A DNA stretch of 64,000 nucleotides from Candidatus Bathyarchaeota archaeon (GCA_005888635.1 VBAW01000019.1:18776-82775); one strand, 5' to 3'. Numbered from the stretch's first letter, positions 2,482 to 64,000 are shown. Made by a program: numbers and translations. The notes: generated by a model not told the origin, from the sequence alone.

Positions 2482-2675
2482 ACCGCAAATCCGTCCAGAT
2501 CTTATTACGACGGACGGTTGCTCGGTTCTAGCCTGCGTGTCTTCGGACGATACTTGTACGAGAAGCCTTCGGCAAATAGCCAGCTTTTTTTTGGCTAGTC
2601 GCGGCCTTTCATTTGATCGGACTTTGTGACTGGCCTGATAATACGACCGCTTCCAACACCTCTCCTCTTAGTTTG

Positions 2676-3008: not shown

Positions 3009-3166
3009 CGGACGAGTCCTTTCTACAAACTAGGAACGTCTGTGCATACTCCATATGAAGAGTGTCTTCGAGTTTTCCTAGACCGCCTACGGAATTTTTG
3101 CAGCTCTGTATCCACTGTTGACATTTGTAAAACGTCAAATGCAGGCTGACCTTCAGTCAAGGAGTA

Positions 3167-3811: not shown

Positions 3812-3880
3812 CCCGGAACCGGTAGGCTAGATCAAGCGTGGAACGAGACCAGCTAAATATGCCGAGGCCGAGCTCGACTC

Positions 3881-4567
3881 ATGAGTGATCCGGTTCTCCC
3901 CCTCGTCGAACCTGATCTTGTCGGAATCTGGAGAAAGAACGTCTGGTGGTTCGGTCTACGGTGGCCGTTCAGCCTGGTCCTCTTCTCCTGGGTTACCGTA
4001 GCTTCGACGCTAGCTCCCGAGTTCCACCTAGACCGATACCTGTTGACGATGCTCGCGGGATTCTTCGGTCTCGTAATAGGAGCCCACTATATCGACATAG
4101 CGGGTAGCAGTGACAAGTATCTTCCATATTTTCCGAAGATGAACCGTGAGGCGATTAGAGTTGTGGGCGTTTTGGCCGTTCTGGTGGGGGTCGCTGTTGG
4201 AGCCTACATGTCGCTGGTCTACTCGATCTGGTTCCTCATCTTTGTTGTTCTGGGAGGATTCTTCGCGTTGTTCTATCCCATCGAGAAGCCAAAGTGGTTG
4301 CACACGTACGCAGGGTTTGGTGTCGCCTGGGGCTTCATGCCCGTCCTAGCCAGCTACTACATCCAAGCGCTACGGATCGACCTCGTCGGACTCGGCCTAG
4401 CAGTCTTTCTCGGGATCACGGTGGTCGAGATGCATCACATGGCAGTCCTGACAAACGAGAAGAAGTATGCTATGGAAACTAACAAGAATGCCCGACTATT
4501 GTTGAAGATTCACAGAGCGGCCGCATATGCGATCGGGCTGATACTCCTCATATCGCGACTGATATAG
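3881..4567 (+). CDS. Polytopic membrane protein, function unknown
   Basis: 228-aa ORF with 6-7 predicted hydrophobic helices. It lacks the UbiA NDxxD motif. Confidence 0.5.
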   Translation: MSDPVLPLVEPDLVGIWRKNVWWFGLRWPFSLVLFSWVTVASTLAPEFHLDRYLLTMLAGFFGLVIGAHYIDIAGSSDKYLPYFPKMNREAIRVVGVLAVLVGVAVGAYMSLVYSIWFLIFVVLGGFFALFYPIEKPKWLHTYAGFGVAWGFMPVLASYYIQALRIDLVGLGLAVFLGITVVEMHHMAVLTNEKKYAMETNKNARLLLKIHRAAAYAIGLILLISRLI

Positions 4568-5900: not shown

Positions 5901-7763
5901 TCAGAATGATCCTGTTGCGGTTACGATGTCTTGCTGGTGTACTGTCGTGGGTACGAACTGGAAGCCGTACCACCAGACGACTGTCTGCACGTTGTTCGTG
6001 TCGCACCATACGGCGTGGAAGTTGTTGTTGGAATCCACTGCTAGGTCTGTGTAGTCGCCGATGAAGCCTCCACCGAAGTGATATCGCGAGTTGATCGGGT
6101 GTGTGGTGACTGTCTGAGTTGTGCTGGTTGTTAGGTCTGTGACGACATAGTCGAGTCGTGCGTTGTTGACGTAGTTGCCGAGCGTTAGGCAATTAATACG
6201 TCCAACAGCTGTGGGGCTGGCGGGTTGAGCGCAGGTCTGCCACGGAGAAACAACATCTGCGGCATAGCTTGAGATGTAGACGTTGCCGTTGGGGCCAATG
6301 GCGACAGCAGGGAAGAAGGTGTCGACTCGTTGGGCTGCGGGGGCGATTAGTGTGCCGCCACTGGGCTGGGCTTGTGGGTAGCCGATGGCTGTCCGAGAGG
6401 ATGCGTCGAGAGCGGCGAAGGCGAGTTGGGGTGTTGACCAGCTGGCTCCAGCATCGGTTGACTTGCTCCAGTAGACTGCTGCGTGGCAGACGGTATTGCT
6501 CGAAAAGCAGGTCGCGTCGACTCCGTAAGAGGTTGCTGTGTTCAGGGCTTCAGTCGACCATGCGGCATAGACGTCCCCGTTCGGAGCGACTGCTCCTGCT
6601 GGGAAGCTGTTGACTCTGAAGACCGAGTTTTGTGGCGAGTGGATGTCGACTAGGGGCGCGATGGCCAGGGGCCGGGTCCAAGTATCTCCACCGTCCGTGG
6701 ATTTGGTCATCCATGTGCTGTCGAAGGATCCGAGGCGAGTGTCACCGTCCCAGAGGACGTAGACGGTGCCATCGGGTCCGACCATGACGTGAGAGCCTTG
6801 GCCGTAGAGAACGTTACCCGAGATTAGTTGTAATGTGCTGAAGGTCTGGCCTCCGTCAGTCGAGTAAGCGAAGATTATGGGAGATTGGACATACCCGCCA
6901 GTGTGCGGGTTGAAGATGAACCGTGTCCAGCTGACGTAGATCCGTCCATAGAATGAGCTAGATGGGTTATTGTCTACTGCGCTCCAAGGCTTGTCGTTGA
7001 GGGTTGAGGGGGCGGTTGTTTGTCCGATGAACGTGGGTGGTCCCCAGTGTAGAGCGCCACTAGTGTCGAAGGCTCCCTTGCTCAGAGTGACGGTGTTGGG
7101 CGGTGCTGTCCGGTCGAATCCTAGGCCGACGAAGTAGACGTTGCCATGATTGTCGAAGAAGACGGTGGAGTCGCCGCCTGCATCGTAAATCCCGCCGGTG
7201 AGACGTTCTACTCCTGGGATGAGTGTTCCCAAATGTGATGGGTCTGTGGCTACGCAGCACCATGTCTGGCCGCCATCGTTGGAATAGTGTGTTCCGGAAT
7301 AGCCGTCGCCGAGAGCGCTGCACGGAGTGCCTCCGACAGTACACGACCATGTTCGCGTAACATAGTCGTTTGATCCCGCGACGATCCGGTTCGCATTGTT
7401 CGGATCCACAGCTATGGTCGGCTCGTTCTGTGAAGCCGCGAGAGTGTCCTGGTTGACGGTTACGTCGGGGGCTGTGACGGTCGAGCCGTCGAGGTTGCTG
7501 CTGAGGACGTATGTCGGCGTGATAGCAGTGTTAGGAGTAGGGTTCGCGGCCAGATCGCTCATGTCAGCTTCCTGCTGTAAGAAGTTGGAGAGTGTGACGA
7601 GGAGGCCGGGGGTGCTCTGTACCGAGGCGAGCTTGCCTGCTAGCGTATTGGTGTTGAAGTGGGTACTGTCAACTCTGAGGGCTGGAGAGGCTACTGCGCC
7701 TTGCATTCCGCTTATGGTTATGGCGAGTGTTAGTGCTAGAATGAGGGATGCTACAATTTTCAT
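5901..7763 (-). CDS. Secreted BNR/Asp-box repeat protein (sialidase/glycosyl-hydrolase-like beta-propeller)
   Basis: Signal peptide plus four Asp-box repeats (SNDGGQTW, STDGGQTFS, STDGGDTWTRP, STDAGASWSTP). Confidence 0.75.
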   Translation of the reverse strand: MKIVASLILALTLAITISGMQGAVASPALRVDSTHFNTNTLAGKLASVQSTPGLLVTLSNFLQQEADMSDLAANPTPNTAITPTYVLSSNLDGSTVTAPDVTVNQDTLAASQNEPTIAVDPNNANRIVAGSNDYVTRTWSCTVGGTPCSALGDGYSGTHYSNDGGQTWCCVATDPSHLGTLIPGVERLTGGIYDAGGDSTVFFDNHGNVYFVGLGFDRTAPPNTVTLSKGAFDTSGALHWGPPTFIGQTTAPSTLNDKPWSAVDNNPSSSFYGRIYVSWTRFIFNPHTGGYVQSPIIFAYSTDGGQTFSTLQLISGNVLYGQGSHVMVGPDGTVYVLWDGDTRLGSFDSTWMTKSTDGGDTWTRPLAIAPLVDIHSPQNSVFRVNSFPAGAVAPNGDVYAAWSTEALNTATSYGVDATCFSSNTVCHAAVYWSKSTDAGASWSTPQLAFAALDASSRTAIGYPQAQPSGGTLIAPAAQRVDTFFPAVAIGPNGNVYISSYAADVVSPWQTCAQPASPTAVGRINCLTLGNYVNNARLDYVVTDLTTSTTQTVTTHPINSRYHFGGGFIGDYTDLAVDSNNNFHAVWCDTNNVQTVVWWYGFQFVPTTVHQQDIVTATGSF

Positions 7764-7876
7764 AATAGGATGTCGGCTCGCGTTCCGGATTTAAGAATAC
7801 CGGTATATCTAGGGATTGCGCCTCATAGCTCGCGGAAGACTTTTGCGTACGGACTCGTATCGAAGATACTTCTAGA

Positions 7877-9406
7877 TTACTGAGATGGCGGGGTCTGACC
7901 AGTTCTTCTTCTCAGCAGATAAATGGCAGCTCCGGCTACAGCGATGATAGCGACGGCTACGCCGATGAATACGGTTAGCGGAAGGGTGCCAGTTCCCGAT
8001 GTGATAGATCCTACGGTTACCTCGACGGTTGTGGAATGGGTCAAGGTCCCGTTGGTCACGGTCACGGTGACCGGGTAGCTGCCCGTTGCCGTTGGATAGG
8101 TTCCTCCCGGAACTGACACCGTCATGTTTGATGTCACAATTCCTCCTGATGCTAGAGTGACTGATGCGGGGCTGAATGTTACGGTCGGCCCAGGTTGAGA
8201 AACGGTTCCCGTGAGCGTTAGTGTGCCTTTGAATCCGCTGAGACTTGTAAGGGTGATTGTTGTGGTTGCTGTAGAGCCTTGAGCTATGCTCAAGGAGGGA
8301 AGGCTGGCCTTTATGTTAAAGTCTGGGATGGTGACAGTAATGTTGACTGTTGTCATGTTTGCAGTTGAACCGCTCGTACCGTTGATTGTGGCAGTGTAGA
8401 ATCCGGGTGGAGTTGTAGAAGTTGATACAGTCATTGTCGATGTTCCGCTTCCTCCTGACGAGATAGTGACGGAAGCTGGGTTGAAAGAAAGGCTCAGCGC
8501 TGCTTGAGAGACTCTTGAGGTTAGCGTGATTGTGCCGGAGAATCCGTTGAGACTTGTCAGAGTTATCGTGCTGCTGTTAGAGGATACGCCTTGAATCACG
8601 CTGAGTGAGGCGGGACTAGAGGTTATGCTGAAGTGGGGAACAGTGATTGTTACCAAGACTGTTGTCGTGTTTGTGGTCGAGCCGCTCGCACCGTTGACTG
8701 TCACAGTATAGGTCCCACCGGGCGTTGAGGCGCTCGTGGAGACGATTACTGTGGATGTTGCGGGTGATCCGGGGGAAACGCTAACGCTTGTCGGCATCAT
8801 AGATGCGGTGGGTCCCGTGGGCGAGACGGATGCGCCAAGATTGATTGTTCCAGTGAACCCATGCTCGCTGCTGAGGGATATGGTTGAAGCGCTTGATGAG
8901 CCCTGTAAGATGGTGAGCGAGGATGGATTTGGTGCCATCGAGAAGCCGGGTGGTTGAACAATGAACATTCCCTTCATGCTCCCTGGGTGGACCGTGCAGT
9001 AGTAGGTGAAACTTCCGTCCGTGCTAGCCTTGAATGTGACCGTTCCTCCTGTCGTGGTTACGCCAGTGCAAGGGTCCGCGGACGGCGAACAATCTGACAC
9101 ATCGGTACCGTCTTTGTCAACATCAAGTAGAAATTGATGATACACGCCGGAGTCCCCGTTTGACCAGACGATTGTTACAGTGTCTCCCTGCTCAACGGCT
9201 ATTGTCGGGTTGGGATTTGTTGTTCCGTTCCAGCCCGAAGCGTAGTATGCTACCAGATGGATCGTCACGGTTGAGGCGTGCGCAGTTTGAAATATTGTGC
9301 CGGGAGGAAGGAGGAGTATGGCGACTGCAAGAATGAACGTGGCCGAGGCGGCCTGCAGTAGGTGTGCGCGCTTCGTCAAGACGAAGCTTCTACATTCATA
9401 GTACAT
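7877..9406 (-). CDS. Cell-surface protein: N-terminal type-1 copper (cupredoxin) domain, three Ig-like repeats, C-terminal TM anchor
   Basis: YYCTVHPGSMKGMFIV is a Cys-His-Met blue-copper ligand loop. There are three ~90-aa repeats (NGFSGTITLTS / SGFKGTLTLTG / HGFTGTINLGAS). The C-terminal hydrophobic helix is followed by RRRTG. Confidence 0.7.
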   Translation of the reverse strand: MYYECRSFVLTKRAHLLQAASATFILAVAILLLPPGTIFQTAHASTVTIHLVAYYASGWNGTTNPNPTIAVEQGDTVTIVWSNGDSGVYHQFLLDVDKDGTDVSDCSPSADPCTGVTTTGGTVTFKASTDGSFTYYCTVHPGSMKGMFIVQPPGFSMAPNPSSLTILQGSSSASTISLSSEHGFTGTINLGASVSPTGPTASMMPTSVSVSPGSPATSTVIVSTSASTPGGTYTVTVNGASGSTTNTTTVLVTITVPHFSITSSPASLSVIQGVSSNSSTITLTSLNGFSGTITLTSRVSQAALSLSFNPASVTISSGGSGTSTMTVSTSTTPPGFYTATINGTSGSTANMTTVNITVTIPDFNIKASLPSLSIAQGSTATTTITLTSLSGFKGTLTLTGTVSQPGPTVTFSPASVTLASGGIVTSNMTVSVPGGTYPTATGSYPVTVTVTNGTLTHSTTVEVTVGSITSGTGTLPLTVFIGVAVAIIAVAGAAIYLLRRRTGQTPPSQ

Positions 9407-18735: not shown

Positions 18736-21504
18736 ATGGACCTCATTTGGTTGGTCCTCGGACTGGTTCTCGCAGTGATCCTAGCTATCGTGGTTCTAGT
18801 TGTTCTTCCATGGTATCGGAAGCACGGCATCGAGCAGGCCAGAGCTTCGTTGAAAGAGGTCCCTTCGATTATCGCTAGAATCGACAATTCCTTGCAGCCC
18901 TACTTGTCCTCGAAGGAGTACCTTCCCGAGCGGGTTGGTAGACCTCTGAGGTCAGAGATCCAGACACTCGCTGAGTTGACCTTGCCGGTTCTCGGGAAAA
19001 GTGTCCGGAGAGCCCATGATGTTGCAATGAGAAAGGATTTCGAGTCGATGACGGCCGCTGCCAATCAGTTGTGTCAAAGGCTTGCGGGGAACAACTACCA
19101 GTATGTCCAGCGAGCGATCTCTGAGCACTCGAAGTTGCTTGTCGATGAGCTGAAGCTCGACGCGGCTCAGCGAGAGGCGACCGTTCGAGACGATGAGCGC
19201 AATCTTGTCGTTGCGGCGGCCGGTTCGGGCAAGACGCGCACGTTAATCGCTAGGGTCCGTTATCTCTTGGAACGTGGCTCCGCTCCAACTAACATTCTGG
19301 CGATAACCTTCACGAACAAAGCGACCGAGGAGATGAAGGACCGCCTCAAACAGATGAGTGTACCAGTCGCGGATCAGGGAAGCGATGGTGTGACTGTCTC
19401 GACACTTCATGCTCTCGGCAAGCGCGAAGTCCAAGCCGCCACTCCAGGACCGCTTAGTATTGCTGACGAGCATTGGACAAACTCCCTTGTCGCTAGCGCG
19501 TTGCGTGATGCCAGGGAAGGTCGAGATCGGCAGCTTTCGAGTTTGTATGTCAATGCGATTCTGAACTTCCATCGTGATCTGGACGAGCGGACCCCAGCTC
19601 TCGGTGCGGACCTTACCTACAGAACTCGTCGTGGAGAACAAGTTCGGTTCATCGGCGAGCGAATCATCGCGGACTTTCTACTCACCCACCAGGTTCCTTA
19701 CAAGTACGAAGCCACAGCCTCATGGGCACAAGTCGGCTCAGGTCGCTCCGCCTATCACCCCGATTTCACACTCCTTGACACTGGAGCTTGCGTCGAATAT
19801 TGGGGGATAGACCGTGGAGGCAATGTGGCCGGGAATTGGTCAACTTCCTCTGCAGATTATGGCAAGGGAATGGCATGGAAAAGAGGAGAGTTCAACCGCA
19901 CTGGCAAGAAGCTCATCGAATTCTACGATTACGAGCGCAGAGAAGGAACTCTGGAGGCATTACTCGAAACACGCTTGACCGGTGCCGGCGTACAATTACG
20001 ACCGATGACACTAGCCGGGTTAGAAAAGATCCTCGGGGATACAAAGTACATCGGCAGCGTGATCGAGAGACAATTGGCAGGATTCATTGAAAATGCTCGT
20101 TCATTCCGAATGTCGACTGACCAGATTCTCCAGCGTCTAATATCGGCAACGCCACGCGTTCATCATTTCGGGAACCTTGGTCTTGCAGTTTTGCAAAGAT
20201 ACAAGAGGGAATTGGCCTCGGAAGGGAGAGTCGATTTCTCGGACATGCTTCACCGGGCCGCTGACATCGTAGAGAAAGGTGCGAGTTCACTCCCAAAGTT
20301 TGATCATGTCCTTGTCGACGAGTTCCAAGACACCTCGACGGCTATGGCCCGCCTTGTGAATGCACTTGTTCGAACAAACCATGCTCATCTCTTCGCCGTG
20401 GGTGATGACTGGCAAGCCATCTACGGTTTTGCAGGCGGAGACGTAGATCATGTTGTCAACTTCGAGTCTCACTTCGGACCCGCCTCACGGACAATGCTCG
20501 ACACAAACTACAGATCCCCGGCCACAATCGTCGAGGCGGGTGCAGCGTTAATTGCTCACAACCCCGGCCAAATACCAAAACAGGTTGTCATCTCTAGCCC
20601 TGAGCGTGGCGAAGCCTTCATTCACGAAGTCCCTGATGACGATTTAGCGATCATAAACAAGGCGATTCAGCTAGTCAACGAGGAACGTAAGCGAGTTGAT
20701 CCCGACGAAATCTTGGTTCTCAGCCGGACCAACCACCTGGTCAAGGGGATAAGCGATGGATGCCAGCAGAATGGGATTCCAGTGGCCTACCCTGATCGCA
20801 ACGTTTCCGGAGTCCGCATACTATCTGCTCATAAGGCGAAAGGCCTAGAAGCGAATGTCGTGGTCATCGCAAACGCTAGCGACCATCTGTTCGGCTTTCC
20901 TTCGAAGATGGAGAACTCGGATGTTCTTGAACCAGTACGGATGAGTGCTGGAAACGCTCCGGCTGAGGAACGACGACTGTTCTACGTAGCAGTCACTAGG
21001 GCTAGGAAGCGGCTACACCTGATCTCTCGACAGGGTCACCCGTCACCTTACATCGCAGAGATCGAAGGAGCTTCTCAACAATCGCAGACTGCCAGCCGGG
21101 GGTCATTTCGTCCAGGCGTTCGTTTCAACGACGCTTTCTACGTTGAACAAGTCTATCGCCTCACTGATCGACAAGCAAAGGCGCGCATTCACCAATGCGG
21201 CCTCTTGACAACACCGAACGGCCGCTTTTCTTTTACGTCATGGCTGCCATTCTATCTTGACCAGGGAAGGACCTATTCGCTGACAGGGGTTCTCTATGAT
21301 CGGCCCTATCAAAACCGGCATCAGGTTACGCTTGACAGGGCGACTCATGTCGAACGACAAGCGATCCAGTCACAAGCCAGCCAACCTATAGGCGTGCGCC
21401 AACTACGTCCACGCCCTCCTCCTCAGTTCCAGCCCCGCTTGATGGTACCAAACAATCCGCTCGTGAAAACATCGGATTCGTTGATCGCGAAGCCTGTTCG
21501 ATGA
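18736..21504 (+). CDS. Membrane-anchored UvrD/PcrA-like SF1 helicase with an internal PD-(D/E)xK nuclease-like insertion
   Basis: An N-terminal TM helix is followed by Walker A AAAGSGKTRT, motif II VLVDEFQDTS, motif III GDDWQAIYGFAGG, motif IV NYRS and motif VI YVAVTRARKRLHL. The insertion between motifs I and II contains ERIIADFLL...YKYE...YHPDFTLLDTGACVEYWG, a Vsr/DUF559-like pattern. Confidence 0.85.
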   Translation: MDLIWLVLGLVLAVILAIVVLVVLPWYRKHGIEQARASLKEVPSIIARIDNSLQPYLSSKEYLPERVGRPLRSEIQTLAELTLPVLGKSVRRAHDVAMRKDFESMTAAANQLCQRLAGNNYQYVQRAISEHSKLLVDELKLDAAQREATVRDDERNLVVAAAGSGKTRTLIARVRYLLERGSAPTNILAITFTNKATEEMKDRLKQMSVPVADQGSDGVTVSTLHALGKREVQAATPGPLSIADEHWTNSLVASALRDAREGRDRQLSSLYVNAILNFHRDLDERTPALGADLTYRTRRGEQVRFIGERIIADFLLTHQVPYKYEATASWAQVGSGRSAYHPDFTLLDTGACVEYWGIDRGGNVAGNWSTSSADYGKGMAWKRGEFNRTGKKLIEFYDYERREGTLEALLETRLTGAGVQLRPMTLAGLEKILGDTKYIGSVIERQLAGFIENARSFRMSTDQILQRLISATPRVHHFGNLGLAVLQRYKRELASEGRVDFSDMLHRAADIVEKGASSLPKFDHVLVDEFQDTSTAMARLVNALVRTNHAHLFAVGDDWQAIYGFAGGDVDHVVNFESHFGPASRTMLDTNYRSPATIVEAGAALIAHNPGQIPKQVVISSPERGEAFIHEVPDDDLAIINKAIQLVNEERKRVDPDEILVLSRTNHLVKGISDGCQQNGIPVAYPDRNVSGVRILSAHKAKGLEANVVVIANASDHLFGFPSKMENSDVLEPVRMSAGNAPAEERRLFYVAVTRARKRLHLISRQGHPSPYIAEIEGASQQSQTASRGSFRPGVRFNDAFYVEQVYRLTDRQAKARIHQCGLLTTPNGRFSFTSWLPFYLDQGRTYSLTGVLYDRPYQNRHQVTLDRATHVERQAIQSQASQPIGVRQLRPRPPPQFQPRLMVPNNPLVKTSDSLIAKPVR

Positions 21505-23432: not shown

Positions 23433-25913
23433 CTAACTGGTTCTGCGGACCCCACAGTTCGGACAGAAGAGCCCAGTTAGAGGAACCGCCGAGCCGCAGT
23501 GAGTACATGGGACTGAGTTGCCACCGAGTGGCCATCTCTGGGAAGATGCCAATGGCGGATTATTCCGCGGTCTTTGCGCCTGTCGGATAAGCAGAAGAGT
23601 AGCTGCAAGGGTCACGAGGGCAACCGCGAGGAATACGGGACCGTACTCCTTGACCAAGATCATGACTTGGCCCGCTAGTGTTGAGATGAGTTGAGAGCTT
23701 GGTCCAGACCCTGGCTCAGGGCTTGGGTTCGGGTTTGCTGAGATTGAGACTTGGAACTGGGCAACGATATTGCTACCGGCCTCCCATATTATGGGATAGG
23801 GATACTGGTATTGCCACTCCACAGTCTCGGTCAGCATGTGTATTCCCGCCCCGACTGACCGGGGAATCGTAAACGCCAGTGTCAAAGTGATATTGCTTCC
23901 CGCACCAATTAGCGGCGCGTCGGGTAGGTTGCAGAGGCTGTTGCCAAGCTGCGCGGTCGGAGTATTTCCGGGGCACTCGCTATCATCCATGAGCGTGAAC
24001 GTTCCAAAATCAGTCGTCACTCTAACCAGGATTATTCTGGAGGGAAGGGCGCCCACGTTTGTGAAATTGTTCACGAACACCGCGGATCCTCCGGCCTGAG
24101 CGGCTTCGGGGCCGAGGATATCATACAACATCGCGGCTGAGGGAACATTGGCTGTTACAGTTTCGGTGGCCTGCATGCGGCTGGTTGTCCCGATAATTGT
24201 AATCGTATAGGATGATGTGGGGGTAGTCTTTGTCGCCACAAATATCGCGTTAACACTAACACTCTTGCCACTCCCGACGGCGACAGGGTTCTGGTTGAAT
24301 ACGACAGTTGGAATCTGGTTTGGCCACGTCGGCGAGGATGGTGCTACCGTCGCGTTGAGCTCTACGCTGCTATCGAAACCGTTCAGGCTGGACAATGTGA
24401 CGGTGAAGGTGCCGTTAGTCGTTCGGGGAACAGTAAGGGACCCAGGACTGGCGGCTATGCTAAAATCTCGCAGCCCAGCACTACCCTTCGGCACCACCAT
24501 AACATCAGTGAAGAGACTGTCGGCCCTGCAACAGGTGTACGCCTCGGCACTAAACCTCACGTCTACGGTCTGGCCTGCAAGACCGGAAATATCGTAGACC
24601 TTCATCTCCGGAAGATTCCCCGTACACCCTCCCGTGCTGTTGACAATCGGCACAGGGACGAAAGTATCGGACAGCGCCCCGATTCCATTGCCTGTAACAG
24701 TAACCGTGGCTGACTCTGACCCGCTCGTTATCTGTCCCCATGTAAGGAATGCGAGTACGCCGCCAGCTTGAGGGACGGTGAAGCTCTCATCGGCGTATCC
24801 AGAAGTGCCTAGAGTGTTCCAGATATCGAGAAACGATGATCCCTGAAGAGCGCCGGGCGTACAAGGCCCGGTACTCGTGGTCACCTGGATGATCGGATAG
24901 TTGCCGTTATACTGGACTCCGTAGATAGTGCCTGTCGTCCAGTATGCGAGTCCGTTGCTGAAGTCCCCGTTCTGGATCGCGTTAACAGCTTCCTGAGCAA
25001 GAATGTTCATCGAAACGGTTAGAGTGTGTGAAATGTGGCCAGCGGTCGCGATGATCGTGGCATTATAGCTCCCCGGAGGGATCGCGGCCAACGACAATAG
25101 GTTGAGAATGGAGAGAGCTGTGCCGTTGATCTGAAGGTTGACGATTGGAGCGCTGAACCATCCAGAGATCGCGTATGAGGAGGATCTTACGGTAAGAGAT
25201 ATGGTCCCGAAGAATCCTGTGTCGCCAGTGAGACTGATGTTGAAGTTTGCAATCATCCCTCTGGGCAACGTCACAGAGGTCGAGTTGGATCTAATCGTAA
25301 AGTCTGACCCGGACGGTAGGAGATTACTGAAGCTGGCGGTCTGAACCGTCGCCGTGGGACCGTTCAGGTTAACACATATTCCGTTGAGAACGCTCGTGCT
25401 TGAACAGCCCGAGGGGAAGGTGATTGGAGTGTTCGCCCCTGTCCCTGTAACGTTGTACGTGGCGGTGAAAAGAATTCCATTTGTGGGCGCTATGGTTGGG
25501 TAGTATCCGTACCCGTCGACGGTAACAACTCCCGGCCCGTCCACTGATCCACAGTTAGCTCCCGCCCCATTGATGCATTGCCAGCCGCCCACAGGGTAAC
25601 CACTCGATGCGCTCATTACGCTCTGAGCCAAACTCGCGTTCACGGGATAGAGGACGGAGGCATTGGTCTTGACCGATATTGTGAACTGCTGGAAAGACCC
25701 GACGGATTGTGCAACGACGTAGACTGTTAGAAAGGATCCCTGCTGTCCCGTGAGAGTTGAAGGTGTGGTGGGACAATAATCAGCAAGCGATATGCAGACC
25801 ATTGGCGCAAGATTTCCGCGAGCAGGAGTTGGAGCTACCCTGACAATGAATACCACGGTGAGAATCAGGATTGCAGCAGCGACATTCGCGAAGTGTCGGC
25901 GAGAACTAGTCAT
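23433..25913 (-). CDS. Large cell-surface protein with C-terminal TM helix and cytoplasmic zinc ribbon
   Basis: 826 aa with a signal peptide and Thr/Ser-rich beta-rich repeats. The C-terminal TM helix is followed by CTHCGSAVPLTGLFCPNCG. Confidence 0.6.
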   Translation of the reverse strand: MTSSRRHFANVAAAILILTVVFIVRVAPTPARGNLAPMVCISLADYCPTTPSTLTGQQGSFLTVYVVAQSVGSFQQFTISVKTNASVLYPVNASLAQSVMSASSGYPVGGWQCINGAGANCGSVDGPGVVTVDGYGYYPTIAPTNGILFTATYNVTGTGANTPITFPSGCSSTSVLNGICVNLNGPTATVQTASFSNLLPSGSDFTIRSNSTSVTLPRGMIANFNISLTGDTGFFGTISLTVRSSSYAISGWFSAPIVNLQINGTALSILNLLSLAAIPPGSYNATIIATAGHISHTLTVSMNILAQEAVNAIQNGDFSNGLAYWTTGTIYGVQYNGNYPIIQVTTSTGPCTPGALQGSSFLDIWNTLGTSGYADESFTVPQAGGVLAFLTWGQITSGSESATVTVTGNGIGALSDTFVPVPIVNSTGGCTGNLPEMKVYDISGLAGQTVDVRFSAEAYTCCRADSLFTDVMVVPKGSAGLRDFSIAASPGSLTVPRTTNGTFTVTLSSLNGFDSSVELNATVAPSSPTWPNQIPTVVFNQNPVAVGSGKSVSVNAIFVATKTTPTSSYTITIIGTTSRMQATETVTANVPSAAMLYDILGPEAAQAGGSAVFVNNFTNVGALPSRIILVRVTTDFGTFTLMDDSECPGNTPTAQLGNSLCNLPDAPLIGAGSNITLTLAFTIPRSVGAGIHMLTETVEWQYQYPYPIIWEAGSNIVAQFQVSISANPNPSPEPGSGPSSQLISTLAGQVMILVKEYGPVFLAVALVTLAATLLLIRQAQRPRNNPPLASSQRWPLGGNSVPCTHCGSAVPLTGLFCPNCGVRRTS

Positions 25914-49286: not shown

Positions 49287-51605
49287 CTATCCTAATCGGC
49301 CATGTTTGTCCACTAGTTTCTGAAGAGAATTCGCAACCTTCTCCGCCTCCGGTCTACGCCCAGGATCCTTCGCCAGCATGTCCTTCAAGACCGGAATTAT
49401 TGCTGAGAATTTCGGATCAATCTTCGACACGTCTGGACTGAAGGAATCCCACGCTGACTCGAGATCATTCGCGGCCTTGTTCGAGGAAGGATTGTTTGAC
49501 AGATTATTCATCGCTTCGATCAACGTGTTGGAGTGGACCGGGGTCCGTGTCAGCATTGTGTACAGCGCCGCTCCCAATGCGTAGACATCCATGCTCGGAT
49601 CCGCCTCGTCGCCGAGAACCTGCTCACCCGGCGCATACTCCGATGTAAACTGAACCACCTTTCCACCACTCTTCACCGCACAGCCTAGGTCAGCCAGCTT
49701 GGGCACGAGCGACCCGGCGACCATCTGTTCTAGCATATCCTGTCCAGTCAATGGCGGCTTCGATGTGAACAGAACATTCTGCGGTTTGACATCAAGATGA
49801 ACGAATCCGGCTTTGTGGACCATGTCTAGTGCCTGAGCCATCATCTGGCCCAGCATCACAACAATCCCACCCCACTTCTCCGAATAGTACAAAGGCTCAT
49901 ACGCTGGATCCTCGATCAGCTTCTTCGCCGTCCCACCCTTCATGAAGTCCATAACGATCGCTGGTGGGCTGCGATAGTAGAGTGCGATATTCCCCTTGAC
50001 AATCTCCTGAACGTTCAATCGATCCACCAGCACTCCTCGGATCTGGACCACGTACTTGGATTGACCTGACAGCTCCAACAATCGAGTCGCCTCGGACATC
50101 GTCTCGTTCAACGTCGTCACCCCGGTAGTCGGCTCGTTCACGCCTCTCACCCTACTGGTCGTTTTCAGGATCGGAATCTTCAGCGCCATCTCAGTCGCCC
50201 CCTGGCCAAAAGTTGCACGGAGAACATAGCCAGTCGCACCCGTAGCAACGTGTTCTACAACTTTGTAGCCATGGATCTCCTGGTTCACCCAGACTCTCGG
50301 ATCCCACTTGTCGAGGCTCGGCAGGCCAGTCTTCGGCAATGGAGCCGAAGGCGGAGGAGGAAGCGAGATTATTGGCGGGGGACTAGGACGTTGAACGGGC
50401 GGTGGTGGAGCTGGACGTGAGACGGGAGGAGGATGCGATACTTGAGGAGTGGGACGCGCAGGTGGCGGGGGAGGTGGATGTGTGACTGGTTGGGGCTGCA
50501 CGCTGAACGAGAAGGACTCCTTGGAGGTTTGATGCGTCTTACTCGTTGCAATAATGTGCGCGTTGTAGTTACCAGGTTTTCCTGGAGCGTAAGCCGCATT
50601 GTATCTTCCAACGGAGACATGTGACAGTCTCAACTGATCACGTTTTCCCGCGGGCGTTTGTATCGATGCGTCGATTGTGGCCATGTCTCGCGGCTTGCCC
50701 TCAGACTCGGTTGCTATCTTGATCGTCTCAATATGACCTATCCTGATGGAGTGGTCTCCTGAGACCCTGATCCGTGGAGGGGCGACGGAAGGACTAGAGA
50801 TCTTCGCAGGTCCCGCGGATATTTTCGGAGGCGCAGGTGCGCCGAGCATTCTGACCGCCAGTCCAGAAGCGACTATCCCGGCGATTGCCAAGAGTGGCAG
50901 GAATCCCAGGGAGGAGAAGAAGATGTACGCGAGTTCTGGACTAGGAGATGTGATGTAGAGATAGCCGATTACGGCGTTGTAGGAGAAGAAGGCTGGCGGC
51001 ATTACTGCCATTGAGAATCTCTTGGTCTGCCAGAATTTGTCTAAGAAGAATAGAAGACCCATCTGGAGAGAGTTCGCGGCAAGGCCTAGGCCAATGAAGA
51101 ACGAAGCGGAGAATAGCGAGGATCCGATCAGGTTCGAGCCCGTGCTTTTCGAGGCTCCAACGACAAGCCCGATACCTGTTGCAAGGGTCGCAAGAACCAT
51201 CTGCTTAGGGACCCGATAACGTTCCTTCTTCGAGAAGAGGATCGTCGACAGGAAGACCCCTGCTGCGGGTGGCAGGGCAACGAAGAGGAAAGTGAATTCT
51301 CCCGCTGATGAGATCTGGGATGAGAAGGCTGAGTTCTGGAGAATGTAGGACAGGGTCAGGAGTGTAGCTGCGAAACCGAGAATGGATCTGAGGAATCCAG
51401 TTTTCAGATCGAGAGCCGTCAGAAGCCCGAAGCTAACAACAGTGATCGCATAGGTCAGAGTATCCCCCTGAAACCCGAGTGCGAATGCGAAGCCGAGGGG
51501 AAGTGAGAGGACTGTGACGAGTGATGGCGCGAAGAAGCCTGTCGGGGCTGGAAGACCGTGATGTGGCTTAGCTAGGACGGACGCCTGGGGCTGTTTTCCT
51601 CCCAC
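49287..51605 (-). CDS. Membrane-anchored Hanks-type Ser/Thr protein kinase
   Basis: An N-terminal polytopic region and a Pro-rich linker precede a C-terminal kinase domain. The domain has the catalytic loop HLDVKPQN, DLG (DFG-like), APE-like SEYAPGE and the Lys motif ALKIP. Confidence 0.85.
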   Translation of the reverse strand: MGGKQPQASVLAKPHHGLPAPTGFFAPSLVTVLSLPLGFAFALGFQGDTLTYAITVVSFGLLTALDLKTGFLRSILGFAATLLTLSYILQNSAFSSQISSAGEFTFLFVALPPAAGVFLSTILFSKKERYRVPKQMVLATLATGIGLVVGASKSTGSNLIGSSLFSASFFIGLGLAANSLQMGLLFFLDKFWQTKRFSMAVMPPAFFSYNAVIGYLYITSPSPELAYIFFSSLGFLPLLAIAGIVASGLAVRMLGAPAPPKISAGPAKISSPSVAPPRIRVSGDHSIRIGHIETIKIATESEGKPRDMATIDASIQTPAGKRDQLRLSHVSVGRYNAAYAPGKPGNYNAHIIATSKTHQTSKESFSFSVQPQPVTHPPPPPPARPTPQVSHPPPVSRPAPPPPVQRPSPPPIISLPPPPSAPLPKTGLPSLDKWDPRVWVNQEIHGYKVVEHVATGATGYVLRATFGQGATEMALKIPILKTTSRVRGVNEPTTGVTTLNETMSEATRLLELSGQSKYVVQIRGVLVDRLNVQEIVKGNIALYYRSPPAIVMDFMKGGTAKKLIEDPAYEPLYYSEKWGGIVVMLGQMMAQALDMVHKAGFVHLDVKPQNVLFTSKPPLTGQDMLEQMVAGSLVPKLADLGCAVKSGGKVVQFTSEYAPGEQVLGDEADPSMDVYALGAALYTMLTRTPVHSNTLIEAMNNLSNNPSSNKAANDLESAWDSFSPDVSKIDPKFSAIIPVLKDMLAKDPGRRPEAEKVANSLQKLVDKHGRLG

Positions 51606-56395: not shown

Positions 56396-58306
56396 TTGAT
56401 CCGGGAAGTACAGCTCACCAACTTCATGAGCTACAAAAACGCAAGCATCCCACTAGAGCCTGGCCTAAATCTTATTGTCGGACCAAACGGCGCGGGAAAA
56501 TCCTCCATCCTCCTCGGAATATCCGTAGTACTGGGACAAGCCTACACGGAGAGATCGAGAAAGCTCAGCGAACTAATCCGATGGGGCGAAGACCAAGCCC
56601 GAATCTCAGTCCTACTAGACAACGAATCGGAGAAGGGTTCGAGACCCTTCCCGCAAGCCCGAAGCGACAAGATCCTACTCACTCGCATCCTGAAACGCTC
56701 CGGCGACTACCATTACCTCCTCAACAACAAGCCCGTCTCCAAGACCAGTCTTATTGAGGGATTATCGAAGATCGGGCTCAATCCTGACAATATGCTGGTG
56801 ATAATGCACCAGCTAATGGTTGGACGCTTCGGAACAGTTAGCCCAATAGAGAAACTACTACTTCTAGAAGACGCGGTCGGATTCGGGTCGTACCGAAAGG
56901 AAGTCGTAGAAGCCAGCGACCGACTACAGAAGCTAACGACTGAACGAGAAACAATGTCCTCCGTCATAGAAGGGACGAGAGAGACCTACCTCCACTGGCA
57001 GAGAGAATACGAGAAGTACGAGACTAAGAAGAAACTGGAGCAACAGCTCAAAGATCTACAGAGAGAACTCACTTGGCGCAGAATCCTCAGAAAAGAAACG
57101 TCCCAGAAACGACTCCAAGACAGAATATCCTCCCTCCAGACAAAATCAGAAGACGCGAAAGACGAACTAGACTCGGCCCAACATGAACACCTCAAACTCT
57201 CTAGCGAACTTGACCGAGTAAACCAAGAGCTTGAAACGTTCAGAGAAGAACACCTGAAACTGGAGCATAGTCGCGGATTCCGCTCAGGCTCGCTTGAATG
57301 GATAGCGAGATTCAGGGATCTAGTTACACCCGGAGCTGAACAGAATGATCAACTAAGACAGACACTAGCGGAGCTCAATCAGGAACATGAGAAAATAGCC
57401 AATACAGCACAACTGGACGAAACAGAATACGTCAGGGTCCGCTCAAAGATCGCCGAACTGTCAGGACATCTTACGAAGAGCACGGATCTTCTTGTTGAAT
57501 CGAAGGTCAGGTCCGAAGTCAACAGCTTCAAGCTTTCAATGATGGCTCAAGAAATCCAAGAACTCGAAGTCCAACTAAGACTTGGCGAAGAGGAACTTGC
57601 ACCCCTGCGAACCCAGGCCCTCCAACTGGGACCAGCATTCGAAAACCCAAGGGATCTACATGATGTAACGCTTGAGACGGCGGCCGTTCAGGAAAGGATC
57701 CGTCCCCTCGCGCACTTGTCAGCCGATGTGGAGAAGATGTTCAAGACATACGGCGACATGTACGAGGATCTGAGGAAGAAAGCGGAGGTTGTAGAACAGA
57801 ACAGGTCTGAGGTCCTAGGAGAACTTCAGGGACGGTTTGACCGCTGGAAAACGGTCATGGGGAAACTCCTCGAAGACCTTTCGTCGCGATATGGCAATTT
57901 GCTCGATGAGGTCGGAGGCAAAGGAAGAATCGACCTCAAGTCCTCAAAGAACATCGAGAAAGCGGGCCTCGAACTCTACGCGGGCTTCAAGGGAAACGAA
58001 CCGGTATCGTTAGACAGTCTCGCACCCAGCGGTGGAGAACGAACTGTCGCCTTGATCGCGTTCCTCCTATCCCTGCAACAATTCATCTCATCACCCTTCC
58101 GAGCAATCGATGAATTTGATGTTCACATGGATCCGAAAAATAGAGAGACGGTATCTCGACTCATCTACGCAGCCTCAAAGACGACGGATAGTAGCCAGTA
58201 CATCGCTATAACGCCTGGACAATTGTCGCTGCCCAGTGAAGACCAAGTCCACGTGGTTGTGGTCCAGAATGTTGAAGGCAGCTCGATGGTAAAGGAGCTG
58301 AAGTAG
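56396..58306 (+). CDS. SMC/Rad50-family ATPase with short coiled-coil arms (mini-SMC-like)
   Basis: Walker A GPNGAGKSS at the N-terminus, about 300 aa of coiled coil, signature LSGGERTVALIAFLLSLQ, and Walker B AIDEFDVHMD. Only 636 aa; TTG start. Confidence 0.85.
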   Translation: MIREVQLTNFMSYKNASIPLEPGLNLIVGPNGAGKSSILLGISVVLGQAYTERSRKLSELIRWGEDQARISVLLDNESEKGSRPFPQARSDKILLTRILKRSGDYHYLLNNKPVSKTSLIEGLSKIGLNPDNMLVIMHQLMVGRFGTVSPIEKLLLLEDAVGFGSYRKEVVEASDRLQKLTTERETMSSVIEGTRETYLHWQREYEKYETKKKLEQQLKDLQRELTWRRILRKETSQKRLQDRISSLQTKSEDAKDELDSAQHEHLKLSSELDRVNQELETFREEHLKLEHSRGFRSGSLEWIARFRDLVTPGAEQNDQLRQTLAELNQEHEKIANTAQLDETEYVRVRSKIAELSGHLTKSTDLLVESKVRSEVNSFKLSMMAQEIQELEVQLRLGEEELAPLRTQALQLGPAFENPRDLHDVTLETAAVQERIRPLAHLSADVEKMFKTYGDMYEDLRKKAEVVEQNRSEVLGELQGRFDRWKTVMGKLLEDLSSRYGNLLDEVGGKGRIDLKSSKNIEKAGLELYAGFKGNEPVSLDSLAPSGGERTVALIAFLLSLQQFISSPFRAIDEFDVHMDPKNRETVSRLIYAASKTTDSSQYIAITPGQLSLPSEDQVHVVVVQNVEGSSMVKELK

Positions 58307-58308
58307 AG

Positions 58309-59106
58309 TTGACGCAAAGAACCAGCAAAGCGTCCGGGAGGAAAGAGCTCGAAGAGCTGATCCAAACATGTAATTCTATTGAGAACCGTCAATTCAATCC
58401 CTTCCTCCTCGACGTGTCCGAAGCACTCAGAATCATTAGGCGACACGCGGCGAGCTGGCAGACGCTACAGGACAACCTTCTAGACATGCGAGCCATTACC
58501 AGCCTCGCGAGAGTAGTAGGGCTCCAGAGCGCTAATCTCAGATTCCAATCCAGCTCACTGTTCGTCGATCCTAGCATGGTCAAGCAGAAGATTGGATCAA
58601 TGTCGAGAGAACAACTGGCCGAACTCCTTCTACTATCATGGCATCCCGTGGTAGAACTCGAGCAGTTGACGGATGCGTCCACTAAGGAAGCTCTGGATTA
58701 TTGGCAGCAGATGCTGTCCTTCTTTGAAAGGCGCAAGAGACTTGCAGCTGGACCCTTCGAAACTCCGGGATCGATGGATTCACCGGAGCTGGCGAGGATG
58801 AGAGTTCTTGAAGAGAAGGCGTTCACTAAGCGCTTGGAAGAGTTACGGATAGAGATGAAGGAGAAAGCAGGAGAGGATAAGCGAATAGAGTATTGGAGCT
58901 TTGTCAGAACGAGTAATTTCCCTCAGACAGTTCTTCGCGCTCAAATGGTCAGCTTCCTCATCAGCTACGGAATGGCCGCGTTGGATAGGAAGAGAGAGAA
59001 AATGTTCTTGATACCCCGCGACCCACCATTCGCGTCCCGGCAGGGATCACCGCTCAGCTATCCCATACCAATCACTAAGGAGGTTGTTCTGTCACGGGCG
59101 AAGTAA
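58309..59106 (+). CDS. Putative kleisin-like (ScpA-like) partner of the SMC-like ATPase
   Basis: Starts 3 nt after the SMC-like gene. The size (265 aa) and a weak N-terminal resemblance to ScpA (FNPFLLDVSEAL) are the only support. Confidence 0.35.
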   Translation: MTQRTSKASGRKELEELIQTCNSIENRQFNPFLLDVSEALRIIRRHAASWQTLQDNLLDMRAITSLARVVGLQSANLRFQSSSLFVDPSMVKQKIGSMSREQLAELLLLSWHPVVELEQLTDASTKEALDYWQQMLSFFERRKRLAAGPFETPGSMDSPELARMRVLEEKAFTKRLEELRIEMKEKAGEDKRIEYWSFVRTSNFPQTVLRAQMVSFLISYGMAALDRKREKMFLIPRDPPFASRQGSPLSYPIPITKEVVLSRAK

Positions 59107-59237
59107 AACCGGAGCAATCGTACTACCCAGAGCGTGTCAAACGAGCCGCGCACCTTCTTTTCTTCAAGAGAGGAAGGGTACCGGGCGCCAGATCGTGGGA
59201 GCTGAAGACAGGTCTTGGCAAAGAGTATCTGAAAGTC

Positions 59238-59777
59238 TTGACGCAACTTGACGAGAGCTTGAAGGATCTAGACCTAGAGGTCAAGAAAGTCGAGTCACGG
59301 GTTCTCAGCGACTACAAGCCAGGACCCGATGCAGAAGAAGAATCCAGATACTTCGTCAGACTGAAAGGAACCCTGACTCCTCGAGAGGCGAGGATGACAG
59401 GGTGGAGAATCGACAACTTAGCTGCCCTGGCAGCTTGCTTGTCAGTTATTGTCTCAAAACAGGGAAAGAGTGAACGAAAAGAGCTCGAAGAGATAATTGG
59501 ACAGAAAGTGGGACGTTGGAGAGCGATCACCCTTACGGACGCTTTCCTGCGCTCCGGCTACCTCGAAGAAGACGAGGAGGGTCTCGTTAAGCTTGGTTGG
59601 CGCACGAGAGCCGAACTCGACCTCGAGAGTCTGATGATGTTAATCGCCGAATCAAAGCCCAAAGGAGTTATTGACCCAGATTCCGCAGAAACTGCGGAAG
59701 CCTCTGAGGAAGAAGACGCCGCGCGAGAAGTGGAAGCTGAGGGTCTTGAGCAGGATCAGGCTTCGACGGACGCTTGA
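59238..59777 (+). CDS. Putative ScpB-like winged-helix protein; the homology seems to extend upstream to ~59110 without a canonical start
   Basis: The in-frame upstream translation ERVKRAAHLLFFKRGRVPGARSWELKTGLGKEYLKVL resembles the first wH of ScpB (EALLF...PLSL.EL). The acidic C-terminus is also ScpB-like. Confidence 0.35.
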   Translation: MTQLDESLKDLDLEVKKVESRVLSDYKPGPDAEEESRYFVRLKGTLTPREARMTGWRIDNLAALAACLSVIVSKQGKSERKELEEIIGQKVGRWRAITLTDAFLRSGYLEEDEEGLVKLGWRTRAELDLESLMMLIAESKPKGVIDPDSAETAEASEEEDAAREVEAEGLEQDQASTDA

Positions 59778-61703: not shown

Positions 61704-62369
61704 CTAACGCACTTTCTTAACGATGAAATGGAACAGGTTTCCTTCCTTCCTCCAATCCAGGAGGTTCTGGCCGGTCCTTTCAGACCAAGCAACCATCTCG
61801 ACGTAGGCCGTTTGATCATCTGAAACCAAGTGGACCACTTCGCCCGCTGGTATGGTTGCTAACAGGTCGTTCAGCCGGATCAGGACTGCAGAGCACTCTG
61901 TGCCGATCTCAGACATTTCATGATCCGGAAACGCCTTGAAACAGCGCACGTGAAACTCCGCGATCTTCTTGGCCAATAGAGTCTTTGACTCGGTACTCTT
62001 CGACAGTAGAATCCGCTCCAATGCGAGATGAGATGGCTTGAGACTCGCAACCCAGCCCTCTTGGTAGGGCGAGTCGTTGATGATCCTCGGCCGATCGACA
62101 ATCAAACCATTTGTTTTTAGAAGAATGCCTGAAACGGGCGAAGGAACTGGACCGACAAACTTTAGACTCTCAAGAGTTCCTAGGCTTTGGCCCCGCTGAA
62201 TTGCGACTTCCGGTGATTTGAGCCGCGCGTGGGTAAGCCTGCCAGCTATTGCTGGCAGCACGCTGGTGACTCCTACCGTAACCTCACCATTTTCTTCAAT
62301 ACGCAACCAAGTGTTGTTCTCCAAGTCGTAAAGGAGGTCATCCGGGAAGACGCAGTGATCTATCTCCAA
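61704..62369 (-). CDS. Fusion protein: N-terminal GcvH/lipoyl-carrier-like domain plus C-terminal TusA-like domain
   Basis: The N-terminal ~110 aa (WLRIEENGEVTVGVTS...LESLKFVGPVPSPVSG...DSPYQEGW) match the GcvH fold with a Lys at the lipoyl position. The C-terminal ~90 aa (GTECSAVLIRLNDLLATIPAGEVVHLVSDDQTAYVEMVAW...FHFIVKK) are TusA-like, with a Cys but no CPxP. Confidence 0.55.
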   Translation of the reverse strand: MEIDHCVFPDDLLYDLENNTWLRIEENGEVTVGVTSVLPAIAGRLTHARLKSPEVAIQRGQSLGTLESLKFVGPVPSPVSGILLKTNGLIVDRPRIINDSPYQEGWVASLKPSHLALERILLSKSTESKTLLAKKIAEFHVRCFKAFPDHEMSEIGTECSAVLIRLNDLLATIPAGEVVHLVSDDQTAYVEMVAWSERTGQNLLDWRKEGNLFHFIVKKVR

Positions 62370-62521
62370 TAAGTTTTCACCCCTCGAATTTCCAGTTCTC
62401 GCGACTCTCTACAAGGATCACCCTTTGCCGGGTTAGTATTAGTTATTGGACTGATTCCGGGAAACGTATAATAGAGAATCCGGGAGTTCGAGCTATCTCT
62501 TCGAGAAGATAGGTAACACCG

Positions 62522-64000
62522 TTGCCCCGATTCAAGAGTTCAGCGGACATTCTCAAAATCGTCTCCAACAAGGACCAAGTCCGCAACATCGGCATCATCG
62601 CCCATGTCGACCACGGCAAGTGTATAGGCGGAGACAGTCTGGTAACCCTATCCGACGGTCAGATCGAGGAGATCGCCAAGGTCTACTCAGAACTAAAGAG
62701 AATAGGGCCGGCCCCACTCCAAGTCGACTCACTGAATCCCAACACCCTGATGATCGAGGACAGGAATGTCTCTAGAGTCTGGAAACTTCACAGCGACAAG
62801 CTAGTCAAAGTAACCCTTCGGAACGGCTACTCGGTAGAGACAACCCCGGAACATCCCTTCTACTCACTCGGACGAAATGGAAAAGTTACACAGAAAAGGG
62901 CAGATAGGATCGGTAAGGGCGACTTTGTTCTTGTTCCAAACATTCTGAAGTCGCAACGGACGGGACTGAAAAAGATCAGATCCGAGATTTTGGAGGAGCT
63001 TGCTTCCCGCAGTTACTATATCGCCTACCTCGACAAGAGATTCTCCAAGCTACTCAGAGAAACTGTACGCAAGAAGGGAGTCAAGGACATTCATTCAAGA
63101 CTACGAACAAGCTCTTCGTTCAGTGCCTTCAAAGGAGCCCTTGAAAACGGTCGCGTCCGAATAGACGACCTTGTTGGCCTAGCCAGATTACTCGGCCTAA
63201 ACGAGAGCCATGTCTACGATCAGATTGCGAGTATTGGGTATCGCGCCAGCAAAGTAAAACCAGGCAGACTCTCATGTCTTGTCAAGCTTCCCCGGACGAA
63301 GAGGCAATTCGAAGATCTCTCTTACCTCTTGGGTCTTCTCTGGGGAGACGGCTCGACCAGGGCCTCCTTCAATAATGGATACGGACCACTTCTCAAGTCC
63401 GTTTCCCGCCTCTTCTACACAATCTTCGGCGTCGACAGTGTCCTCGTCAAGGACAAGAGAAACAATACCTTCAGACTGGACCACCATGGCGGCCTCAGCC
63501 TCATAAAATTCCTTGAAGATACGTTTCAGTATCCTTCAAAACACAAAGCGCACGAACTCATTTTCCCGAGACTAGTCCTGAAATTGGGGAACAAATCCGT
63601 TGCCTCCTTCCTCAGGGGGGAATTCGATACCGACGGTGGAGTCGAGAGAACCAGTGCCATAGTCTCACTAACGACAGCCAGTAAGAAATTCGCGCGGCAA
63701 GTGGCGATCGCACTGCTGAGATTCTCCATCATTCCAACTATCCGTGAGAGGAGGAGGTACTTCACACTCTCAATCTCTGGAGAAGACACTCGGAAATTCG
63801 AGGAGAATATTGGATTCACGATACCTAGGAAACGCAGGGCTCTTCGCATTCTTGCACGAAAAGCCGTCATTAATCGAAAGACGGGAATCGTCCCTATCGA
63901 CTGGCGAAACCTCAGAAGGGTGCGAAGCGAACTCGGGATCACTTCAAGATACGTGGAATCCAGGATACCGTTCTACCGAAGCTATGAATCAGGCAGACAA
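62522..64000 (+). CDS. fusA: Elongation factor 2 (aEF-2), 5' partial, interrupted by an intein after the P-loop GK; continues beyond the window
   Basis: TTG start. PRFKSSADILKIVSNKDQVRNIGIIAHVDHGK matches the crenarchaeal aEF-2 N-terminus MPRYKTVEQVLSLMKD.RVRNIGIIAHVDHGK(TT). A Cys then begins the intein. Confidence 0.8.
   Translation, partial: MPRFKSSADILKIVSNKDQVRNIGIIAHVDHGKCIGGDSLVTLSDGQIEEIAKVYSELKRIGPAPLQVDSLNPNTLMIEDRNVSRVWKLHSDKLVKVTLRNGYSVETTPEHPFYSLGRNGKVTQKRADRIGKGDFVLVPNILKSQRTGLKKIRSEILEELASRSYYIAYLDKRFSKLLRETVRKKGVKDIHSRLRTSSSFSAFKGALENGRVRIDDLVGLARLLGLNESHVYDQIASIGYRASKVKPGRLSCLVKLPRTKRQFEDLSYLLGLLWGDGSTRASFNNGYGPLLKSVSRLFYTIFGVDSVLVKDKRNNTFRLDHHGGLSLIKFLEDTFQYPSKHKAHELIFPRLVLKLGNKSVASFLRGEFDTDGGVERTSAIVSLTTASKKFARQVAIALLRFSIIPTIRERRRYFTLSISGEDTRKFEENIGFTIPRKRRALRILARKAVINRKTGIVPIDWRNLRRVRSELGITSRYVESRIPFYRSYESGRQ
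62621..64000 (+). mobile_element. Intein with LAGLIDADG homing-endonuclease domain inserted in the aEF-2 P-loop (C-terminal end beyond the window)
   Basis: Block A CIGGDSLVTLSDG follows directly after HGK. LAGLIDADG motifs are YLLGLLWGDGS and SFLRGEFDTDGG. No stop codon occurs through the end of the window. Confidence 0.8.

Follow-up and report, generated by a model that had tools for sequence, protein, structure and literature searches.

What interrupts the gene for archaeal elongation factor 2 (aEF-2) at the end of a 64,000-nucleotide stretch of DNA from Candidatus Bathyarchaeota archaeon (hereinafter the window), and is the interrupting element a mobile intein, the remnant of one, or something else altogether? 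A single open frame on the plus strand starts at position 62522 and runs off the end of the window at base 64000. It begins with a TTG codon (62522-62524), the first possible start after an in-frame TAG (62510-62512) that lies three codons upstream, and more than 20 related loci likewise have TTG here (L001, L034-L052, L102, L103, and L105), with ATG in its place in the more distant homologs L002, L003, and L104; the TTG start proposed in an earlier note on this DNA is accordingly upheld. Scans for tRNAs, Rfam families, and promoters or terminators of the bacterial type near the gene found none.

The 33 residues encoded at 62522-62620 (LPRFKSSADILKIVSNKDQVRNIGIIAHVDHGK) constitute the N-terminal part of aEF-2 (N-extein) and close with AHVDHGK, the first part of the G1 motif (P-loop), at 62600-62620. 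Residues 4-43 of the frame align with positions 3-42 of the aEF-2 profile TIGR00490, the 33-residue fragment scoring just 20.8 bits, and the N-extein is identical to the corresponding part of the 728-aa, intein-free EF-2 proteins P0011 and P0013 except for residue 1, which is Leu in the window and Met in P0011. The earlier note had described the extein as crenarchaeal aEF-2 up to HVDHGK; the match to aEF-2 stands, but the host is a soil archaeon of the Bathyarchaeota (TACK) and lies outside the Crenarchaeota proper.

Beyond this point, the sequence features indicate with high probability a class-1 intein with a double-motif LAGLIDADG homing endonuclease, inserted between Lys33 and Thr34 of the aEF-2 G1 motif AHVDHGK/TT. 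The residue directly after HVDHGK is Cys34 (TGT, 62621-62623), followed by IGGDSLVTLSDG. From this Cys the frame remains open to the window end and contains exactly 460 intein codons (62621-64000, plus strand, as are all intein features given here), corresponding to residues 1-460 of a 539-residue intein and matching protein P0236 (GenBank TMI64329.1); both the opening Cys and the minimum length of 460 residues given in the earlier note are therefore correct. Block A (CIGGDSLVTLSDG, 62621-62659), with the catalytic Cys1, lies at the start of a match to TIGR01445 (intein_Nterm; residues 34-114, 54.1 bits against a cut-off of 24.5), and C1 and G13 are invariant in an alignment of 25 related inteins (A3). 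Block B has the form T-x-x-H (TPEH, 62843-62854), with T75, E77, and H78 invariant in the same alignment. The Pfam domain Intein_splicing (PF14890, residues 68-238, 62723-63235; 52.1 bits against a cut-off of 35.8) covers the N-terminal Hint lobe together with a linker of approximately 120 residues that has no family assignment of its own.

The endonuclease is marked by the two LAGLIDADG motifs recognized previously, YLLGLLWGDGS (63323-63355) and FLRGEFDTDGG (63608-63640), both of which could be located with the acidic residue intact. Their starts are 95 residues apart, compared to the 90-110 or so expected of double-motif enzymes, and in alignment A3 the first motif has an invariant G238 and a nearly invariant (at least 90%) G242, and the second an invariant F330 along with nearly invariant G333 and D336. 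The second half of the endonuclease is additionally matched by LAGLIDADG_3 (PF14528, residues 360-431, 63599-63814) with 63 bits against a cut-off of 22.5. Judged by these profile scores, the match of the window frame to inteins is far above chance. When the family profile was compared with solved structures, the best matches were the V-ATPase A-subunit inteins 7qss and 7qsu, PI-PfuI (1dq3), and PI-PkoII (2cw7), with E-values from 2e-41 (7qss) to 2e-28 and coverage of both splicing lobes and the endonuclease, the homing endonuclease (HEN) domain aligning to 7qss and 1dq3. These inteins differ from the present one in host protein and target site, and residues ~136-255 of the window intein have no aligned counterpart in their linker and DNA-recognition regions. 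An AlphaFold2 model of P0002, built from an 8-sequence alignment, had a mean pLDDT of 43 and a pTM of 0.29 and was too poor for use.

Blocks F and G of the intein lie outside the window and are known from the identical GenBank protein P0236 and from the 99%-identical locus L034. P0236, titled 'elongation factor EF-2, partial' and encoded on an 84.5-kb contig of Candidatus Bathyarchaeota archaeon, equals the window translation over residues 2-493 (residue 1 being L, from TTG, in the window and M in the record), continues with YESGRQ KITRSV and, farther on, VYDLTVPGNHTFIANGMVVHN, and passes into TTMTDSLLAGAG. In both P0236 and L034 the junction reads FIANGMVVHN/TTMTDSLLAGAG, so that the intein comprises 539 residues, includes blocks F and G, ends with His-Asn (N572 in P0236), and is followed by a +1 Thr (T573), at which the C-extein opens with TTMTDSLL. 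A C-terminal junction followed by resumption of aEF-2, which the earlier note had made the test of its reading, is thus present in both sources. Locus L034, a JGI soil contig, shares the upstream gene with the window and has 99% DNA identity to it over the 1.6 kb compared; its complete ORF encodes a 1267-aa precursor with the same junctions, consisting of an N-extein of 33, an intein of 539, and a C-extein of 695 residues. Excision of residues 34-572 leaves 728 residues with the P-loop AHVDHGKTT, and 723 of the 727 compared residues match the intein-free P0011 (4 differ).

The restored protein has the features of a genuine EF-2. The full precursor P0224, a 99% relative, scores 870.9 bits against TIGR00490 (cut-off 738.45), with its C-extein aligning from profile position 32, and the intein-free P0011 scores 894 bits. 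A canonical diphthamide loop separates true EF-2 from divergent paralogs. This loop (LHEDPVHRG, conforming to H-x-D-x-x-H-R-G in domain IV) is found in P0224 and P0011, from which it was read since P0236 stops short of domain IV. We consider it very likely, with the same confidence as for the intein itself, that the host gene is a single-copy-type aEF-2 with a diphthamide loop, carried by a soil archaeon of the Bathyarchaeota.

These boundaries also bear on the alternative that no intein is present and that the insertion stems either from a chimera created in assembly or from a lineage-specific domain insertion of the ordinary kind. Such a reading could draw on the contigs that end in the first 60-175 codons of the EF-2 gene, that is, break inside the intein (L005, L008, L061, L065, L076, and L078, and the contig of P0050), and on the frameshifts in some related EF-2 genes (within the intein in L036, ~7500-7600, and in L057, ~1256; within the extein in L042, ~6250). 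Yet the same in-frame insertion, with the C1 and HN/T boundaries, recurs in dozens of assemblies that are independent and stem from different samples, the breaks are what one expects, and probably result from, intein-bearing and intein-free alleles coexisting in a sample, and the frameshifts are most likely assembly or sequencing errors, given that extein sequence is hit as well; for the same reason the truncated ORFs of L036, L057, and L042 were rejected as intein pseudogenes. The artefactual explanation can be discounted for practical purposes.

From its motifs, the intein is predicted to follow the standard splicing chemistry and to possess cleavage activity. The aEF-2 gene would be translated as a 1267-aa precursor, in which an N-S acyl shift at Cys1 would yield a thioester open to attack by the +1 Thr; cyclization of the terminal Asn, assisted by the penultimate His, would then release the intein, and an O-N shift would re-form the peptide bond, producing the 728-aa EF-2 with an intact P-loop. 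In the unspliced precursor the P-loop would be broken and the protein inactive, so the host should depend on efficient splicing. The free intein, for its part, would act as a site-specific endonuclease targeting intein-free EF-2 genes at CAC GGC AAG/ACC ACG, and repair from the intein-bearing copy would convert the empty allele, carrying along some of the flanking extein.

The inactivity of the P-loop prior to splicing would also suit a very different role, namely that of a post-translational switch in which splicing conditional on redox state, temperature, or nutrients gates the supply of EF-2 and hence translation. The general notion that P-loop inteins might splice conditionally has been put forward (Novikova et al., 2016; PMC4760082), and selection on the endonuclease domain (see below) could in principle reflect another function. 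Against this, the +1 residue is Thr rather than Cys, which makes the known Cys1/Cys+1 disulfide trap impossible, and the only other cysteines of the intein are at positions 219 and 478. Furthermore, close relatives thrive without the intein, and the dN of the inteins is about 30 times that of the exteins, a pattern that points to a parasite and not to a regulator. We accordingly regard a regulatory role as very improbable and return to the reading of the element as a homing intein.

If the element homes, empty target alleles should be expected, and these, for which the earlier note had advised a check, were found: the same locus carries intein-free EF-2 genes in L102 (P0011) and L103 (P0013), with the N-extein identical to that of the window apart from residue 1, and also in L104 and L105. 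The neighboring gene in the window (61704-62369, minus strand), divergent from EF-2, encodes a 221-aa protein in which a glycine-cleavage H-protein domain is fused to a TusA sulfurtransferase domain; this GCV_H/TusA gene adjoins EF-2 in L034 and also at the intein-free loci L102, L104, and L105. More generally, intein-bearing and intein-free EF-2 proteins occur within one 90%-identity cluster in 5 lineages.

Comparison of the alleles at the DNA level provides further hints of mobility. The extein of L034 is 95.5% identical to that of the intein-free L102, compared to 89-91% identity with other intein-bearing alleles. The differences between L034 and L102 are concentrated around the insertion point: codons 1-90 (270 nt) contain 32 of them and codons 91-420 (963 nt) contain 15 (Fisher p = 5e-12), and 30 of the 31 differing codons in the first tract are synonymous. 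This tract would fit, short of proof, either co-conversion of the flanks during homing or replacement by an empty allele. It shows no clear closeness to the sampled intein-bearing alleles, and L034 and L102 have two further divergent patches (codons 422-512 and 640-693), which implies that the EF-2 gene is a recombination mosaic anyway.

The mode of selection within the intein was estimated by the Nei-Gojobori method (NG86) for L034 against L035 and L038, the inteins of which are 88% identical to that of L034. The dN/dS ratio is 0.06-0.08 in the HEN domain, compared to 0.15-0.18 in the N-terminal splicing lobe, 0.26-0.28 in the linker, and 0.02 in the extein. The endonuclease is under strong purifying selection and is more constrained than the other parts of the intein. 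With a GC content of 50-51%, the intein is close to its host gene (53%), which indicates that the invasion was not recent, and a recent foreign origin, considered as an alternative, is countered by the same figures.

This compositional near-equilibrium with the host is also what would be seen under the most serious competing view, whereby splicing persists but endonuclease activity has been lost, leaving a vertically inherited remnant that is retained only because imprecise deletion from an essential P-loop would be lethal. Remnants of this kind do seem to exist at the same site. The acidic residues of both LAGLIDADG motifs are gone in the EF-2 inteins of L004, L058-L060, and L019, which have retained their splicing blocks and look like decayed endonucleases, and the 151-aa mini-intein of P0007 has neither the linker nor the endonuclease. 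In the clade of the window, however, both catalytic acidic residues are intact, the endonuclease evolves under the constraint described above, the nearest extein relative is intein-free, and the sequence on either side of the insertion point is unusually divergent. A dead endonuclease thus appears unlikely for the window intein, although clearly less so than a regulatory switch. On balance, the element is apparently a selfish one that is mobile now or was so recently.

Decayed motifs (A3 columns ~262-266 and ~361-366) occur in several Nitrososphaeria and in a Natronomonas MAG. In addition, between the endonuclease and block F (A3 columns 509-590), the inteins of L002-L004, L054, and L058-L060 have some 75-80 further residues, predicted to be helical, which are missing from the clade of the window.

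The inteins of the soil Bathyarchaeota and their relatives, to judge by their sequences, represent all stages of the homing cycle, that is, the empty, full, decayed, and mini states. A familiar point of reference is PI-SceI, the intein of yeast VMA1, which combines a Hint domain with a double-LAGLIDADG endonuclease in an essential nucleotide-binding protein and spreads by cutting the empty allele. The relatives of the EF-2 intein reproduce the same succession of states; PI-SceI differs in that it is eukaryotic, has a +1 Cys, and has been demonstrated experimentally to home, whereas homing of the EF-2 intein is predicted.

How widespread are such inteins? The HVDHGK/C...HN/T insertion was detected in aEF-2 of Calditenuis, Nitrososphaerales, other Thaumarchaeota, Micrarchaeota, and Halobacteriales, and intein-bearing and intein-free EF-2 are found together in Calditenuis, Nitrososphaerales, Micrarchaeota, and Halobacteria. 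Altogether, the P-loop inteins of EF-2 span at least 5 archaeal lineages and at least 11 separate 50%-identity clusters. The characterization of an EF-2 intein as uncommon in the earlier note consequently holds for the literature but not for the sequence data. P-loop inteins, including those of archaeal 'aIF2'/aIF5B, are textbook cases in the main text of Novikova et al. (2016; PMC4760082), which does not name EF-2 as an intein host, and an EF-2 intein is likewise absent from a survey of 118 haloarchaeal genomes (PMC4071816) and from a survey of eukaryotic inteins (PMC5784728); the surveys without aEF-2 among the intein hosts comprise Soucy 2014 and Green 2018 along with the above part of Novikova 2016. 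Full-text literature searches found no paper on an EF-2 intein, the matches to EF-2 being to its use as a marker in multilocus sequence analysis (MLSA) and to papers on diphtheria toxin. The intein-carrying proteins in clusters shared with intein-free ones are all titled just 'elongation factor EF-2'. Thus, EF-2 appears to be an undescribed intein carrier and, at the same time, a recurrent target in uncultured archaea.

With respect to the origin of the intein, the closest parallels come from other P-loop proteins. The inteins of aIF5B ('IF2') from Pyrococcus, Thermococcus, and Methanocaldococcus are located at the same point, after the Lys of GHVDHGK/T in G1, and similarly consist of a Hint domain and a LAGLIDADG endonuclease; the top NCBIfam match of the window protein is PRK14845, the intein-containing aIF5B (142.9 bits, residues 23-490), and metagenomic aIF5B inteins are 25-30% identical to the window intein over the full length. 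The hosts differ, being aIF5B in one case and its paralog aEF-2 in the other, so that the sites are paralogous and the inteins are not the same allele. A HMMER search with the intein alone as query yielded 2159 hits, for the best 148 of which the insertion sites were read. Among these best 148, 11 inteins follow AHxDHGK (EF-2), 18 follow GHxDxGK (aIF5B or aIF2-gamma), and 42 follow other GxxxxGK P-loops, approximately half of which are of the FtsY/SRP54 type and most of the others GDPGxGK; the remainder are at other sites, such as GAGL/C. Related inteins are thus found at the same GK/T point of aIF5B and of aIF2-gamma.

A bootstrapped neighbor-joining tree of 29 inteins of this insertion site recovers an aIF2-gamma clade (100%) and an aIF5B clade (76%), and divides the EF-2 inteins between two clades, one from TACK archaea that includes the window intein (85%), separate in this tree from the aIF5B clade, and the other from DPANN and Halobacteria (99%). 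The branching order among the clades receives at most 54% support. One contig of an uncultured archaeon, L028, encodes P-loop inteins in both aIF5B and aIF2-gamma (2453-4054 and 6625-8538), which share the HxDHGK/C point and belong to different clades.

An ancient transfer between paralogs is plausible on these grounds. Specifically, we tentatively suggest, at somewhat less than even confidence, that one old intein lineage has moved repeatedly among aEF-2, aIF5B, aIF2-gamma, and perhaps the SRP GTPases, such that the EF-2 allele described here would be a product of ectopic homing and the TACK and DPANN/Halobacteria clades of EF-2 inteins would be independent captures. Hopping of this kind would exploit the near-identical DNA that encodes HVDHGK/TT in translational GTPases. 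A comparable scenario has been put forward for eukaryotes, where the P-loop inteins of Anaeramoeba and those in the SRP receptor and IF-2P of Rhizophagus have been read as transfer to non-allelic sites (Gallot-Lavallee et al., 2023; PMC10710043). The parallel lies in the presence of related archaeal inteins after GK in aEF-2, aIF5B, aIF2-gamma, and FtsY/SRP54-type P-loops; the difference is that the eukaryotic cases are intragenomic, whereas here the hosts are archaea and the clades are old and largely host-specific, with no recent jump visible.

In both its makeup as a homing-endonuclease intein and the kind of site it occupies, the element described here is typical, and it leaves the understanding of intein function unchanged. 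What it adds is aEF-2 to the list of intein hosts, along with a test case for the crossing of P-loop inteins between paralogs and, in the EF-2 genes of soil Bathyarchaeota, a natural system for the study of intein dynamics in uncultured archaea. There are practical implications as well. Database annotation overlooks the intein, so that records of 'elongation factor EF-2' exceed the true length by about 540-615 residues. The protein is a common phylogenetic and MLSA marker, and where inteins and co-converted flanks go unnoticed, alignments can be distorted and metagenome assemblies can be interrupted at the EF-2 gene.

Several other genes in the window merit a brief mention. A UvrD-family helicase of 922 aa (18736-21504, plus strand) contains an insert of approximately 290 residues in its first ATPase domain, which was considered as a potential second intein and rejected, there being no intein signal. 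Two ORFs of 826 and 620 aa (23433-25913 and 5901-7763, both minus strand) have no confident family assignment, with only weak signals of a zinc ribbon and of BNR repeats. A 772-aa protein (49287-51605, minus strand) combines a C-terminal eukaryotic-type Ser/Thr protein kinase domain with 440 N-terminal residues that are not assigned to a family. Finally, the gene for a short SMC_N-type ATPase (636 aa) precedes two ORFs of 265 and 179 aa that have no Pfam match (56396-59777, plus strand), and the three genes could encode a compact complex of the SMC-like type, complete with partner proteins of its own.
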